Positions 48,001-54,000 of a DNA stretch of 64,000 bases are shown one piece after another. Position 1 is the first letter of the stretch. Each line of letters begins with the position of its first letter. Origin of the DNA: a virus (lineage: Duplodnaviria > Heunggongvirae > Uroviricota > Caudoviricetes); IMG/VR virus record IMGVR_UViG_642979322_000011. One strand, written 5' to 3'. Position numbers: made by a program.

Positions 48001-51000
48001 GATTGACAGTACTTTAATGACTGTTGATTTTCCCACAAAACCGCTGAATTTTAAGGCGACCGGTGGATTTGGCTCGGTTCTTCTTGAATGGGATATGCCT
48101 AATTATCGCGGACATTCACTGACTGAAATCTGGCGGGGTACGGAGGATGACCTTGCTGATGCAGTGCTGGTTGCCACGACGCCGGGGCAGGTTTACGGCG
48201 ATCCGGTTGACCCTGGCTGGTCGGGATTTTACTGGATACGTTTTGTTAACGCGGCAGGAGTGAAAGGTCCATGGAATGCTGAAAAAGGCACTCAGGCACA
48301 AACACAGATCGGCGTGAAGGCCATCATTGACCAGATCCGCGATGAGGCTGCAAAGTCGCCGGTTGTGTCCGAGCTGCGTAAAGAAATAAAAAACGCGCAG
48401 GGGCAGGCTGTAAAGGATGCTGCAATTAAGACAACCGAAGTTGTAGGGACTCTCAGGGAAGAAACGACAAGAACGATTGGTGGTATTGAAACCCGCATTA
48501 GCACACTGGATTCGTCAACCAGTGAATCGCTTAATGAGGTCGACAAGCGCATCACTAAATTGGATAAAGAAGGCGGTGAAGCTTTTCTTGCAATGTGGTC
48601 AAAAAAAGCGGGAGTTGATGGTATCACTGCGGGGATCGGGATTGTCGCCGGAAAAGACAGTGAAGGCAGGCCTGTAAGTCAGGTTGCAATTTCTGCGTCG
48701 CAGTTGTTTGTCTTTGACCCGAATAATCCGGATAACACAGCCTATCCGTTTGCGGTATCAGGTGGCAAGGTAGTGATCCCGAAAGCGATGATTTATGACG
48801 CGGTGATTGAAACACTGGTGTCGCGGAAGGTTGTGGCGGATGAGGTAAAAGCCGGGGTAAGTATCACTTCGCCAGTTATCCGGAGTGCCGTTATTCAGAA
48901 CGGAAACTTTCAGGTTGATTCTCAGGGTAACCTGAATATTGGAGGCCTTTTCAGTGTTACGTCACAAGGGCAACTGACAATTCGTTACTCTAATCAGAAT
49001 GTAGGACTGGTGATCCGCAATGATAAAATTGAGGTTTATGACCAGAATGGACGACTGGCTGTTCGCATAGGCAGATTACGCTGATCAGGAGGTGAGTATT
49101 GGAATACGGTTTTGCCATTTATAACAGAAATAACGTTAATGTTACGGGCGTGCTGACTCCAGTATTTTTCCTGGACAGATTTACAGCGGAGTCTGGCTCA
49201 AAGACGTACACTAATAAACCCGACGGGAAATCATTGCAGGCTGTATGTTGTTTATTTCCCTGGAATAATGTATTTGCGGATCGGAAAGTACCGAAGATAA
49301 CCATTAATGACAATACGGTGACGTGGTCGAATCTTGAGCAGGGTATGGGATCTTATATTTATACATTCTGGGGATAAGTGTTATGTACGGTTTGAGCATT
49401 ATGAAGCCGGATGGCAGCGTATGGATAAGTCCAGGTTTTACGCCGCAGTGTCTGATCAACAAAGGCACCATACCGGCGACTGAAAAGTCTTTTTTTAAAA
49501 CATCAATCCCGTCAGGCAAAAGTTGTTTTTTCTTTATCAGAACAGAGAAGAAGGCCGATGTCATGTACACGCATGAACAGATTGATGGATATCATGCACT
49601 AAGGCTTCATGTAATTGTCAGGGGAACGAACCCTGGTGTTACGACGGTTTATGCTTTCGCGAATATGGTTACTCCACCTTCTGAGTATGGTATCGCCATG
49701 TATAACCCGGACGGTGAGATGATTTATCATGGCGAAATGATGCTGCTTGACGCGAAGTTAATACCTGTTGATATCAAATTTGAAAAGGACCTTGGATATC
49801 CATGCGCAATCATGCCTGCACTGGTCGGGTATTATAACTGGAAAAGAACTCCTTATGATCGACCGATTTATACCACATCCACTGGTGCTACAGGAAATAA
49901 AATATATTCCTGTGAGCATTATTCCGGTGGTGCAACATGGGATATTCGAAAGCCGTATATAGATAAGGTCCTGGTTATTAATACATCAGTATATGATTAG
50001 TTGAAGCGAGTCTTTAATATTCATTTAAAATGTCTAAAAAGATGTATTATTAAAAAGTTTAGCGTGTTATCTGAATACAGGATATCTTAAATGAAGAGTA
50101 TAGCAACACTGGTTGTGTGTGCAATCTCCGGGATTGCCTGTGTAAATTTATCTGCACATGCAGCAGAAGGAGAGCATACAATTTCTCTGGGGTATGCGCA
50201 CTTTCAGTTTCCGGGACTGAAGGATTTTGTAAAGGATGCGACTGCTCATAACAGGGAGACTTTCAGTCATTTCGTCAACAGAAACTACTTTTCTTCATTG
50301 GGCGAATATACAGATGGTCGGGTCAGTGGATATGAAGGCAAGGATAAAAATCCACAGGGCATTAATATCAGGTATCGCTACGAGATAACGGATGATTTTG
50401 GCGTTATCACCTCTTTTACATGGACGCGTTCTCTCACTAACTCACAGACATTTATTGATGTGCAGTCAGCCGATCATACCAGGAAGATTAAGAATCCGGC
50501 AGCTTCTGCCAGAACGGATATCAGGGCGAATTACTGGAGTCTGTTAGCGGGGCCTTCATGGCGGGTTAATCAGTACATGAGTTTATATGCGATGGCAGGG
50601 ATGGGCGTTGCTAAAGTTAGCGCTGACCTGAAAATTAAGGACAATATTAACAGTAGTGGCGGATTTTCTGAAAGCAACAGCACGAAAAAAACCTCCCTTG
50701 CGTGGGCTGCAGGTGCACAGTTTAACCTGAATGAGAGTGTTACACTGGATGTGGCTTACGAAGGTTCCGGCTCTGGCGACTGGCGCACGAGTGGCGTTAC
50801 TGCTGGCATTGGCCTGAAATTCTGACCTGTATCCGGTAACCGTTTACTACCCGCTGTGATGGCGGGTTTTTTATTGCCCGTACAGGGCAAAAACCGTAAA
50901 TTATGCGTGGGTGCCTTTCGGCTGATGGCTGGAGGGTGAACCTGAAGGCCTGATGTGGAAAGGCCCCGAGTCAACTTAACGTTAACCCGAGGCCCTAACA

Positions 51001-54000
51001 CTTCGTACCTTAAGCAAGTAGAAGGTTAGCGCCTCTCTGTAAAAGGAGTCAAGCGCTATGTCGCAAAAATCGCTTATCACCGTCACAATTTGCATGACGG
51101 TTATCTTCACCATCTGGATGTTGCACGGTTCACTGTGTGAGTTCCGGCTGAATTTGTGGGGAGCGGAGTTTGCGGCGTTCTTACAGTGTAAGCAGTAGGA
51201 AAACCGCGACGGGGACGAGAGTCCCCGTCAACTGGTTGCTGAGGTTCAGCCGATATGGCACCCGTTTCAGGTGAGAGAATGAACGATAAAATTCTCTGGT
51301 ATATGCAGCGTGTTGTGAGAAATTCCCGCAACCCTGAATTTATGAATGAAGTTAAAGACGCCTGCCTTAAAAAGCAGGCGTTTTGTTTTGAGGCACCTGA
51401 TGGCTTTTTGGTGCTGCGTTCTGTGCTCAGTGCTGATGGTATCCCTTATGTTCTGGTGTTGCTGGGCGTGTGTACGGGGAGTAACAGCGTTGAGCGTTAC
51501 CTGCCGGAGGTGAAGACATTAACCCATCTGGCTGGCGGACGCTGGGCTGAGTTCCATACGGCAAGGCGGGGATTTATCCGGCTGGGAAAACGACTGGGCT
51601 TTGAGCGAATGCCGGATGATGAGGATGGCTTCATGGTGTTCAGGATAGCGGTCTGACTGCTACAGTTTTCATCATTGTGTTTAAACCAACATTGTAATTC
51701 ACATTCTGACCCTGCTCCGGCAGGGTTTTTTGTTATCCAGGGGGCCATTATGGGTGGAAGTAAAGGCGGTGGTGATACCAAAGTAAAACCAACAGCAGCG
51801 CAAATAGCACAGGAAGAAGTGGCCTGGAAAGGGTGGCAGGATTACAAAAATATCCTCCGCCCGGCTGAAGATAACTTCATGGAAAAGGTCGATGACCTGA
51901 ACAGTGAGCAGCAGTACGACAATATTGCTGGCACCACAAATCTGGGGTATCAGAAACAGTTTGGCGAAGCACGGAAGGAGCTTGCGGGTAATCTTGCTCA
52001 GTCCGGCGTTGACCCATCCAGTGGTCGTTTTAATGCGGTAATGAATGCGAACCAGAGTGACCAGGTAACCGGGCAGATTGACACAACCACACGGGGGCAG
52101 GTATCGCAGGCAGATAAGTATGTTGCCGGGCTACAGGATGTTGCTGCTCTCGGTTCTGGTCAGAAGGCGGATGCGTTACAGAGTTTTAACTCTCTGGCAG
52201 ACAGCAGTCTGGCAAAAGCTAAATCGGATGCACAGGCGGCGTTTACGAAACAGCAGGGGCGAGCCTCTCTTGTTGGCGCTGGTCTGGGTGCGGCAGGTGC
52301 ATATGCGATGCATAAGGCTGGCGGTAGCGGAGGAAGTGGCGGTGCTAAAACACCTGGCACCGGCGCTAATGCCATTCAGCATCAGGCTCAGAACTGGAGA
52401 CTGTAATTATGGAGTATGGCAAATACGAAACTCTCGCAAGGGCTGGTTATTCAGGAGCAGACCGCCCACAGGGTGACTGGCAGACGTCAGCAGCGCTGAC
52501 ACGCCAACAATACGACGACTGGCGAACCAGATATTTGCCCCGCGTGGCAAGGCTGGCTGACCTTGGGGAGAACAACAGTCTGATGAATGCACAGCTTGCA
52601 CGGGTGGGAGGCCTTGCCACTTCCAGTCTCCGTACAGCGCAGATGGCGCAGGATAACCAGATGGCGAGATACGGGGTAAACCGCCCGGATAATCCCGACA
52701 GTAATACGCTGGGGTTACGTAATGCCCTGGCAATTGCTGGCGCGAAAAATGGTATCCGTGAAGCCGAACAGGATCGCCAGATGAATATTCTGACGGGGGC
52801 TTCTGCACCGGCAAGACAGAAACTGAGTGTTGGCGGCCAACTGGTGGCAGCGTAAGGGGGCAATATGGGATACGGTTTACTGGATATTGCAAATCAGTCG
52901 CGGCGTGAGGCATTACAGGGAATAAGTGACGCAGACAGACGACGTGAAGAAATTGAGGCTGCGAACAAACAGATGGCGGCGCAACAGAAAGCGCAGAACA
53001 AGCAGAATATCGGTACGGGCATTGGTACGGGGGCGGCTATTGGCGCATCCGTTGGTGGTCCTGTTGGTGCTGTTGCTGGAGCAGTAATTGGCGGCATTGC
53101 TGGTTCTTTGTTTTAAGGAGTGGTGAATGAGCGGATTTGCACAGGGGTTACTTGCCGGATTCAGCACCGTTGACCAGGCAATGACCCGTCGTAAGGAGCT
53201 TGGTCTGCGTGAAGCACAGCTTGCCCGGCAACAGAAAAATAACGAGCGCGATTTTGAGTTTGCGCAGTCTCAGTTTGAACATAATAAAAACGTTGATCAG
53301 CGGAACTTTGATTACAGAGCCAAAGTTGACGACCGTAATTATGCACTGAAGGAGAGGGAGTTTAACGCTAACCAGAATTACCGGAATGCGTCACTGGGTA
53401 TGGAGCAGCAGCGACTCCAGTTGCAGAAATACAACCAGCGACGGCTTGAGTATAACGATATGATTGCCCATAGCCAGCCACTAATGGAAGCGCTTGGAAA
53501 AGCAATTGAGGCTGGCGATCAGGAGGCTGCAACGCGTCTGTTCGGGCAGCTGCCAAAGGGACATCCATTAATTCTTATGTCAAACGAAGGCTATGCAGCG
53601 AAAGCGGGTCAGGCCGTGATCAACCTGCAAAAAATCTTTGGTGATAAGCCGGACATGGCGATCGATTCGCTGAATACCCCGGAAAATCTCGATGTGCTTT
53701 CCGGCGTGTTTGCCCCGGAACTACAACAGCGTATTGGCATGCCTGATTCAACCGGGGACAAAACGATAAAAGAGGCCAGGATTGGCAGTATCGTACCAGC
53801 GCAGCAGGAAGGGTACGTACTTATTGGCCTTGATCTCACATACAGCGATGGCTCCACCGCGCATAAACCTGTAACAGAATACGGCAGTGCGCACCCTGAT
53901 GATCAAACCGTGCTGGCGATACCCGTTGATAAGGCTATCGCTCAGGTCAGGGATCGCAGCAAATTTGCAGAGATATCGAAAAATTATGGTTATTTTATGC

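Follow-up and report, generated by a model that had tools for sequence, protein, structure and literature searches.

The R1 hok/mok/sok (parB) locus is a type I toxin-antitoxin (TA) system in which the antisense RNA Sok blocks the start site of the mok reading frame, and translation of mok up to the Shine-Dalgarno (SD) sequence of hok is mandatory for the synthesis of Hok (PMC9841398). A second system of this kind, hokW-mokW-sokW, was described on a functional Shiga toxin (Stx) prophage (Takada et al. 2021, PMC8621323). A third line of work on Stx phages concerns 24B_1 of phage Φ24B, which is presented in print as a herpesvirus-like, microRNA-size trans-acting regulator of d_ant and sdhB. The present analysis deals with a small locus downstream of lom in a 64,000-nucleotide (nt) stretch of a Caudoviricetes virus (IMG/VR record IMGVR_UViG_642979322_000011; the whole stretch is referred to as the window). 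The locus is very probably a hok/sok-type TA module of Stx phages that is controlled by an RNA switch without mok, and whose antisense RNA is the RNA known as EcOnc53, sRNA108 and the 24B_1 precursor.

A sequence-only reading of the window had placed a Hok/Gef-type toxin locus next to lom at 50880-51240, with a 46-amino acid (aa) open reading frame (ORF), a good ribosome-binding site, a 3' stem-loop and a sok-like antisense RNA that was expected upstream of the ORF and could not be defined by eye. The analysis supports what that reading had proposed: the ORF encodes a Hok/Gef toxin, its mRNA is of the hok type, and an antisense RNA of the Sok type lies in the leader. The locus lies where it was placed, directly after lom (50091-50825; Ail/Lom outer-membrane protein family), and the span given for it is slightly short as the unit extends from the promoter at 50874 to the end of the fbi-like element at 51263. 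Both the toxin gene and the antisense RNA are already in the literature, under unrelated names, and the kind of system is very well known. What is new is the pairing of the toxin with the antisense RNA, with its implications for the 24B_1 work, and the evidence for a subfamily that works without mok. Three unconnected literatures bear on the same 355-nt unit: genome annotation and the Hok catalogue, the mapping of small RNAs in enterohaemorrhagic Escherichia coli (EcOnc53, sRNA108), and the 24B_1 work on Φ24B.

The toxin gene

The ORF of 46 codons (51058-51198, plus strand, stop codon included) encodes the peptide MSQKSLITVTICMTVIFTIWMLHGSLCEFRLNLWGAEFAAFLQCKQ. It matches the Pfam family HOK_GEF (PF01848) with 33.2 bits against a curated cut-off of 22 (E 4e-8) and PHROG 251 ('MokW-like host killing') along its full length (E 2.8e-24). 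The peptide also has the layout of Hok/Gef proteins, with a length of about 50 aa, an N-terminal hydrophobic helix, an L-C-E core and a polar C-terminal tail. RefSeq names it 'Hok/Gef family protein' (WP_000078907.1), and the spacer downstream of lom was left empty in the original 933W, Sakai and Φ24B records. The ORF scores far under the cut-off of the NCBIfam HokA equivalog NF007290 (38.4 vs 89 bits) and reaches 22.7 against a cut-off of 73 with the NCBIfam Hok subfamily model. Homology searches return a coherent 46-aa subfamily that is present in E. coli, Shigella and Salmonella, and an alignment of 31 of its members has C27 and C44 invariant and L26 and E28 at least 90% conserved. The ORF represents a separate subfamily, apart from the named K-12 Hok orthologues.

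Comparative analyses used an alignment of 20 distinct copies of the locus, which spans the sequence between the predicted +1 and the 3' end. Of these copies, 19 have an intact ORF of 46-47 aa. The ORF is under purifying selection, with a ratio of nonsynonymous to synonymous substitution (dN/dS) of 0.15-0.54 against other copies. The SD sequence (AAGGAG, 51043-48) is spaced 9 nt from the ATG, bearing out the earlier statement about the ribosome-binding site, and a strong SD is kept across the copies. Some Stx2a-phage records carry five or seven G in place of the GGGG run at 51158-51161 (hok codons 34-35). The altered run, found at four loci, gives a frameshifted product of 44 aa, while hok is intact in further records from this lineage; the length variants reflect either slippage or sequencing error.

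Escalera-Maurer et al. (2026 preprint, bioRxiv 10.1101/2025.08.07.668861) list a peptide identical to that of the window as 72_1589, a member of the high-abundance cluster 72 that was cloned as LRP157. In their screen 42 of the 45 homologues tested were toxic, and 72_1589 is absent from the three non-toxic constructs (19_179, 60_1482 and 69_1540). The authors state that Sok, Mok and the mRNA were left unanalysed. The ORF is a real membrane toxin gene of the Hok/Gef family carried by Stx phages.

Architecture of the hok mRNA

The coordinates of the elements discussed below are given in Table 1. The mRNA is predicted to start at G50909, downstream of a weak promoter, and the best TAnnnT candidate for a -10 box ends 6-7 nt 5' of GGGTGCC in 19 of the 20 copies. 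The minimum free energy (MFE) fold of the hok mRNA is -155.4 kcal/mol (z -6.9). A consensus structure of 70 pairs, built with RNAalifold and direct pair counting over the 20 copies, is paired in 97.2% of cells, compared with 35-40% in controls in which the partners were slid by 1-3 columns. Compensatory changes occur at 17 of the 70 pairs vs 1-11 in the slid controls, and the covariation score of the consensus is above that of all 500 shuffles.

Two helices compete for the 5' end of the RNA. In the tac/fbi helix, which appears in the single-sequence MFE fold, GGGUGCC..CGG pairs with UCAGCCG..GGCACCC; its 7-bp core is nearly invariant and each of the three adjoining pairs is compensated in 8 of the 20 copies. 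When the RNA is truncated at its 3' end (50909-51236), the predicted fold pairs tac with 50955-67 and leaves the SD unpaired. This tac/ucb helix is 95.1% paired and has compensatory changes at three pairs, with pairs 10-51 and 11-50 each compensated in 8 of the copies. Positions 10 and 11 of the mRNA therefore covary with both ucb and fbi, and covariation of the same 5' nucleotides with both elements is the signature of two mutually exclusive partners.

In the closed form a hairpin buries the SD, and positions 51058-73, around the start codon, are paired with 51163-78 (codons 36-41). The target hairpin for Sok lies in the mRNA at 50960-96. In the open form, a second hairpin is predicted to capture the anti-SD; the base of its helix is conserved, and the loop has complementarity to the Sok 5' end. 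The 3' stem-loop of the sequence-only reading, with the arms GACGGGGAC and GUCCCCGUC at 51207-32, belongs to a stable hairpin that is likely to stop the 3'-to-5' trimming that removes fbi. Further downstream, a terminator-like hairpin whose place in the system is uncertain might mark where full-length hok mRNA ends in lysogens. On the minus strand, CGGTTTTCC follows the 3' hairpin of hok (51207-51230), which is flagged as terminator-like in this direction; it might stop antisense transcription coming in from downstream.

The antisense RNA

The antisense RNA can now be defined, together with its promoter, which occurs at the same position in all 20 copies with TAACCT or TATCCT as the -10 box. 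The predicted RNA consists of a 5' tail of about 23 nt and a 16-bp hairpin followed by UUUCC. A transcript from this strand has been detected, under other names. Using Hfq-CRAC (UV cross-linking and analysis of cDNA), Tree et al. (2014, PMC4104026) listed the ECs1236-ECs1237 (lom-ECs1237) spacer as number 65 among the Hfq-bound intergenic regions, where four of the five samples gave read counts in the thousands for each strand. They also reported the peak EcOnc53 on the minus strand, at 1292386-1292438 in the old Sakai numbering, which differs from that of NC_002695.2 by about 135-142 nt, as checked with AsxR. The position of stx2A in NC_002695.2 also fits its old coordinate with this offset. 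With the offset corrected, EcOnc53 falls at about 50960-51019 on the minus strand of the window. A review (PMC7873438) gives the length of EcOnc53 as 67 nt by differential RNA sequencing (dRNA-seq) and Term-seq, and states that it is the same as sRNA108 of EDL933 and a longer form of '24B_1' of Φ24B. The antisense RNA of hok is EcOnc53, sRNA108 and the 24B_1 precursor (67-80 nt).

Proposed mechanism

Sequence and comparison show an mRNA of about 355 nt that is made from the weak promoter with G50909 as its first nucleotide. In the full-length RNA, tac and fbi close the molecule, with the SD held in its hairpin and the start-codon region paired with codons 36-41. A small RNA (about 51019-50950) is transcribed on the opposite strand from the TTGACT-18-TAACCT promoter. 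Trimming from the 3' end to the stable 51202-37 hairpin would take off fbi, after which tac could pair with 50955-67. This would free GAGGCCCUAAC to capture the anti-SD (51025-35), so that the hok SD would open for direct initiation. The antisense RNA would pair with 50950-51019 and sequester 50989-51019, allowing the anti-SD to close again, and the antisense:mRNA duplex would probably be cleaved by RNase III. A mok reading frame would be neither needed nor present in this scheme. The Hok peptide would enter the inner membrane and dissipate membrane potential and ATP. A further idea is that late transcription, antiterminated by Q, passes the lom terminator in sense orientation to give a hok RNA that lacks tac and collides with the antisense promoter, which could tie Hok to prophage induction.

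Relation to 24B_1

Nejman-Falenczyk et al. (2015, PMC4426718) described 24B_1 as a 20-nt RNA at HM208303 45711-45692, with a promoter, p24B_1, whose boxes are TTGACT and CGCTAACCT. These boxes correspond to window 51052-47 and 51031-23 and are identical to the antisense promoter. Over the 566 bp of the complementing plasmid insert, as defined by the published primers, Φ24B is 99.1% identical to the window and encodes an identical Hok, which is unannotated. The Δ24B_1 deletion of 189 nt removes much of the hok system, leaving the hok ORF behind an 87-nt scar, and the plasmid carries the whole module. Hence the published complementation cannot separate RNA from peptide. The deletion would in effect be a hok/sok null that additionally lacks the lom terminator, and the plasmid would bring in a toxin gene.

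The locus might contribute to prophage stability or post-segregational killing, as the sequence-only reading suggested; the phenotypes published for deletion of the region are instead effects on the balance between lysis and lysogeny and on the ATP level. The ATP decrease linked to 24B_1 on a plasmid or in a prophage came without a growth defect. Such a drop in ATP is what low-level Hok, acting by membrane depolarisation, would be expected to give, and with Hok as the cause the downstream chain proposed by the authors (less ATP, less proteolysis, more lysogeny) would remain applicable. In the published 24B_1 literature that was examined, no link to the hok gene is made, and papers outside the searchable set may exist. 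The terms 'hok' and 'toxin-antitoxin' are absent from PMC4426718, 'hok' and 'sok' are absent from PMC10732415 (PLoS One 2023) and PMC12197685 (a 2025 review), and a 2017 mini-review treats Hok-Sok and 24B_1 in separate, unlinked sections. Literature searches for WP_000078907 and for 24B_1 with hok found no paper that joins them.

A different explanation takes the antisense RNA to be chiefly trans-acting and microRNA-like, with the 20-nt 24B_1 cut from an 80-nt precursor to repress d_ant and sdhB and so favour lysogeny, the hok ORF being irrelevant. It draws on the effects on lysogenisation, induction kinetics, burst size and ATP level that were published for Δ24B_1 and pUC18_24B_1, on the weak binding of the 20-nt RNA to sdhB mRNA in vitro, and on the binding of the precursor by Hfq. 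However, Δ24B_1 also takes the hok promoter, leader and SD, and the plasmid has the full toxin module, so neither isolates the RNA; the binding to sdhB was below 10% at 100 nM. The 20-mer moreover sits in the apex of a hairpin that P2-like prophages and Salmonella have kept along with its promoter, and the authors of PMC7873438 already suspected it to be a decay product. This explanation is considered unlikely. A more far-reaching reading of the 24B_1 phenotypes (lysogeny bias, slower induction, lower burst, lower ATP) would make the 20-mer a processing or decay fragment of a Sok-type antitoxin or of the Sok:hok duplex, and the module a mok-independent hok/sok variant in which the antisense RNA governs the hok SD by a three-helix RNA switch. 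This reading, whose chances are put at somewhat less than even, is offered tentatively. Should the link between the toxin gene, EcOnc53/sRNA108 and 24B_1 hold, 24B_1 experiments would need controls that split RNA from peptide, and a membrane-depolarising Hok would be the simpler cause of the ATP drop.

Control without mok

Several observations weigh against the hok/sok reading. None of the three reading frames stays open in the window from the Sok-target hairpin to the hok ATG, so that there is no mok ORF, and 11 of the 20 copies have no leader ORF that reaches hok, while in the others the start positions are inconsistent. Since mok is mandatory in R1, a locus that lacks it could be translationally silent. 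A generic promoter scan with a threshold of 9/12 returns no site, both promoters scoring 8/12. The upper part of the open-form hairpin is poorly supported by covariation. EcOnc53 was not detected by northern blotting (Tree et al., PMC4104026), the CRAC reads could come in part from similar copies elsewhere in the Sakai genome, and the searchable literature yielded no experiment that shows neutralisation of this toxin by the antisense RNA. An Rfam search, a check that had been suggested for the locus, is negative at default settings: no family matches the hok locus at its gathering threshold, and the sok model (RF01794) reaches 35.6 bits where the threshold is 59.

The sub-threshold RF01794 match is nevertheless specific; it covers the full model length on the sense strand (50909-51071) with an E value of 2.6e-6 in a 701-nt search. 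Because the promoters fall below the scan threshold, their support comes from positional conservation and from the published BPROM and dRNA-seq data. With regard to translation, the favoured scheme is one in which ribosomes initiate directly at the hok SD under control of the RNA switch, because the ORF is intact in nearly all copies, the dN/dS values are low and the strong SD is conserved.

A mok frame was sought in the leader. An ATG at +45 opens a frame of 61-79 aa that overlaps hok in three E. coli/E. albertii copies and has only 8 codons in the window; it was rejected as it is closed in the window, is absent in Salmonella and has bases that covary with the 5' end as RNA. In the same region, GTG 50955 begins a frame of 24 codons (50955-51029) that stops at TAG 51027-29, 31 nt short of hok. 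Canonical mok-dependent control, with this frame as mok and Sok as its block, would have several points in its favour: GAAGG lies 6 nt 5' of the GTG, the frame is wholly inside the region complementary to Sok, and the stop codon abuts the hairpin arm at 51028-32. Termination there, right at the base of the SD hairpin, would let the ribosome expose the hok SD. The frame is, however, unconserved, with end points between -81 and +134 when counted from the hok ATG; the Salmonella copies have neither ATG nor GTG at this place in the leader, and the nucleotides covary with the 5' end as RNA, not as codons. Control through this frame is judged quite improbable. It is very doubtful that the locus is a decaying hok relic, transcribed and never translated with its mok frame closed, since the lack of a leader ORF to hok in the window and in just over half of the copies, the end of the +45 frame after 8 codons, the frameshift of hok in some Stx2a-phage records and the loss of tac in one Salmonella copy stand against the intact ORF with its dN/dS and conserved SD, the covariation of the RNA switch elements, the retention of most of the unit in more than 1500 E. 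coli genomes, and the place of the peptide outside the non-toxic constructs of the published screen.

The mok-less subfamily is a convenient case in which Sok would control hok without a leader peptide.

Genomic context and distribution

The gene downstream of the module (51279-51656) belongs to PHROG 610, of unknown function. It most likely starts at ATG 51279, as judged from the alignment of PHROG 610, which begins at residue 9 of the longer ORF. A stretch of 435 nt around the hok ORF is 100% identical in 933W, VT2-Sakai (Sp5) and many further Stx phages, and at least 80% of this stretch is found in 1570 of 5426 complete E. coli genomes. Homology with copies in other contexts is conserved over exactly 50889-51263 and none is seen beyond, and the boundaries of the module coincide with the predicted mRNA ends. 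As a discrete unit of 355 nt (50909-51263), it also occurs in P2-like prophages, Salmonella, E. albertii and Citrobacter. In Stx phages of the 933W/Sp5/Φ24B type this mobile unit is cargo, placed between lom and the late-region gene that follows.

Most of the copies outside Stx phages lie at the (right) end of a P2-like prophage, directly after the ogr/Delta gene (eight loci). Two Salmonella contigs carry a tandem pair of modules about 490 nt apart. One Salmonella copy (two loci, positions 500-700) retains fbi and the antisense promoter but has unrelated sequence in place of the 5' tac region. In phage TL-2011c (locus positions 1583-1940) the leader has one difference from the window in 149 nt and the Hok coding sequence is strongly divergent (MPQKTIIVSILC...); the copy looks like a recombinant of two hok variants. 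When the subfamily alignment was used as the query for related loci, seven were returned, three of which are probably contaminant contigs (Xanthomonas, Planococcaceae and Vagococcus).

The window is 99.5% identical to Sakai prophage Sp5 over 38438-62883 and divergent thereafter. As the match ends at 62883, the window either lacks the right prophage arm on which 933W/Sp5 carry hokW-sokW or has a different one. Elsewhere the window holds two C4-antisense-RNA/isrK pairs about 8.8 kb apart, at 6492-6674 and 15259-15447 (minus strand), and an ALIL pseudoknot (the frameshift site of the IS3 family) in the late region at 32895-33011 (minus strand).

Table 1. Elements of the locus and of the published 24B_1 constructs, in window coordinates
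Feature	Position	Strand	Details
pUC18_24B1 insert (from published primers)	50746-51311		566 bp; whole module including toxin ORF and fbi
lom intrinsic terminator	50849-50873	+	ACCCGC..GCGGGT and T-run
Δ24B_1 deletion	50858-51046		189 nt; removes 3' arm of lom terminator, hok promoter, entire leader, sok including the -10 box, and four nt (AAGG) of the hok SD
hok promoter, weak	50874-50902	+	-35 TTGCCC (50874-79), 17-nt spacer, -10 TAAATT (50897-902)
hok mRNA core, tac to fbi (predicted)	50909-51263	+	about 355 nt
tac-like 5' element	50909-50924	+	GGGUGCCUUUCGGCUG; partner fbi (closed) or 50955-50967 (open)
Sok-type antisense RNA (predicted)	50950-51019 (approx.)	-	fold -33.4 kcal/mol, z -5.4
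ucb-like tac partner	50955-50967	+	GUGGAAAGGCCCC; predicted in 3'-truncated mRNA; overlaps 5' arm of Sok-target hairpin
24B_1	50965-50984	-	UAACGUUAAGUUGACUCGGG; 20 nt; apex and 3' arm of Sok hairpin
Open-form hairpin (predicted)	50989-51035	+	GAGGCCCUAAC (50989-99) with GUUAGCGCCUC (51025-35); would capture the anti-SD
Antisense promoter	51023-51052	-	-35 TTGACT (51052-47), 18-nt spacer, -10 TAACCT (51028-23)
SD-sequestering hairpin	51028-51057	+	AGCGC/GCGCU and CUCU/GGAG; helix 6, 99% paired
Stable 3' hairpin	51202-51237	+	z -4.3; compensatory changes at 5 of 9 pairs
fbi-like element	51246-51263	+	UCAGCCGAUAUGGCACCC; complementary to mRNA 5' end
Terminator-like hairpin and T-run	51357-51390	+	inside the next gene (51279-51656); followed by TTTTGTTTT

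Comparison with known systems

In tisB/istR-1 and zorO/orzO, the antitoxin reportedly pairs well upstream of a sequestered toxin SD, and processing of the mRNA is said to be needed. The toxins of these two systems are unrelated to Hok, and their antitoxins are divergently encoded and not full cis-antisense RNAs. Their likeness to the locus in the window would lie in the working principle only. The K-12 sokX/hokX locus was also considered and identity with it was rejected, as there is no DNA similarity and only the layout is the same.

The locus shares with R1 hok/mok/sok (PMC9841398) a Hok/Gef peptide, a weak sense promoter, tac/fbi closure, tac/ucb pairing after trimming and a stable 3' hairpin, as well as a short antisense RNA in the leader with a TTGnnn-17/18-TAnCCT promoter, a single-stranded 5' tail and one long hairpin. 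Unlike R1, it has no mok frame at the R1 position nor a conserved alternative, its leader is 149 nt long compared with about 173 nt, the 46-aa peptide has a Cys-Lys-Gln C-terminus, and the Rfam model matches below threshold. The antisense RNA here also ends about 25 nt upstream of the hok SD, which together with the lack of mok points to control through RNA structure and/or cleavage.

With hokW-mokW-sokW (PMC8621323) the locus has in common the type of phage, the toxin family, the nature of a type I TA system on a functional Stx prophage, and the involvement of Hfq. The hokW locus differs in its place, which is outside the window (933W 58460-58734, on the opposite strand and close to the right end of the prophage), and in its products, with a HokW of 51 aa that is 37% identical to the window Hok over 35 residues and an in-frame mokW of 70 aa. 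Identity of the two loci was rejected on position, strand and divergence, and as the published primers are absent from the window and the window departs from Sp5 after 62883. Since hokW-sokW is a different locus, such phages carry two divergent hok loci, of which that of the window is the uncharacterised one. The ΔhokW-sokW strains of PMC8621323 still have the window-type locus, and two divergent hok systems in phages of the Sp5/933W type, if confirmed, would bear on the partial phenotypes of these strains. The closest relation is to 24B_1/EcOnc53/sRNA108 of Φ24B, Sp5 and 933W, which has the same DNA, strand and promoter boxes and is read here as a cis-antisense antitoxin.

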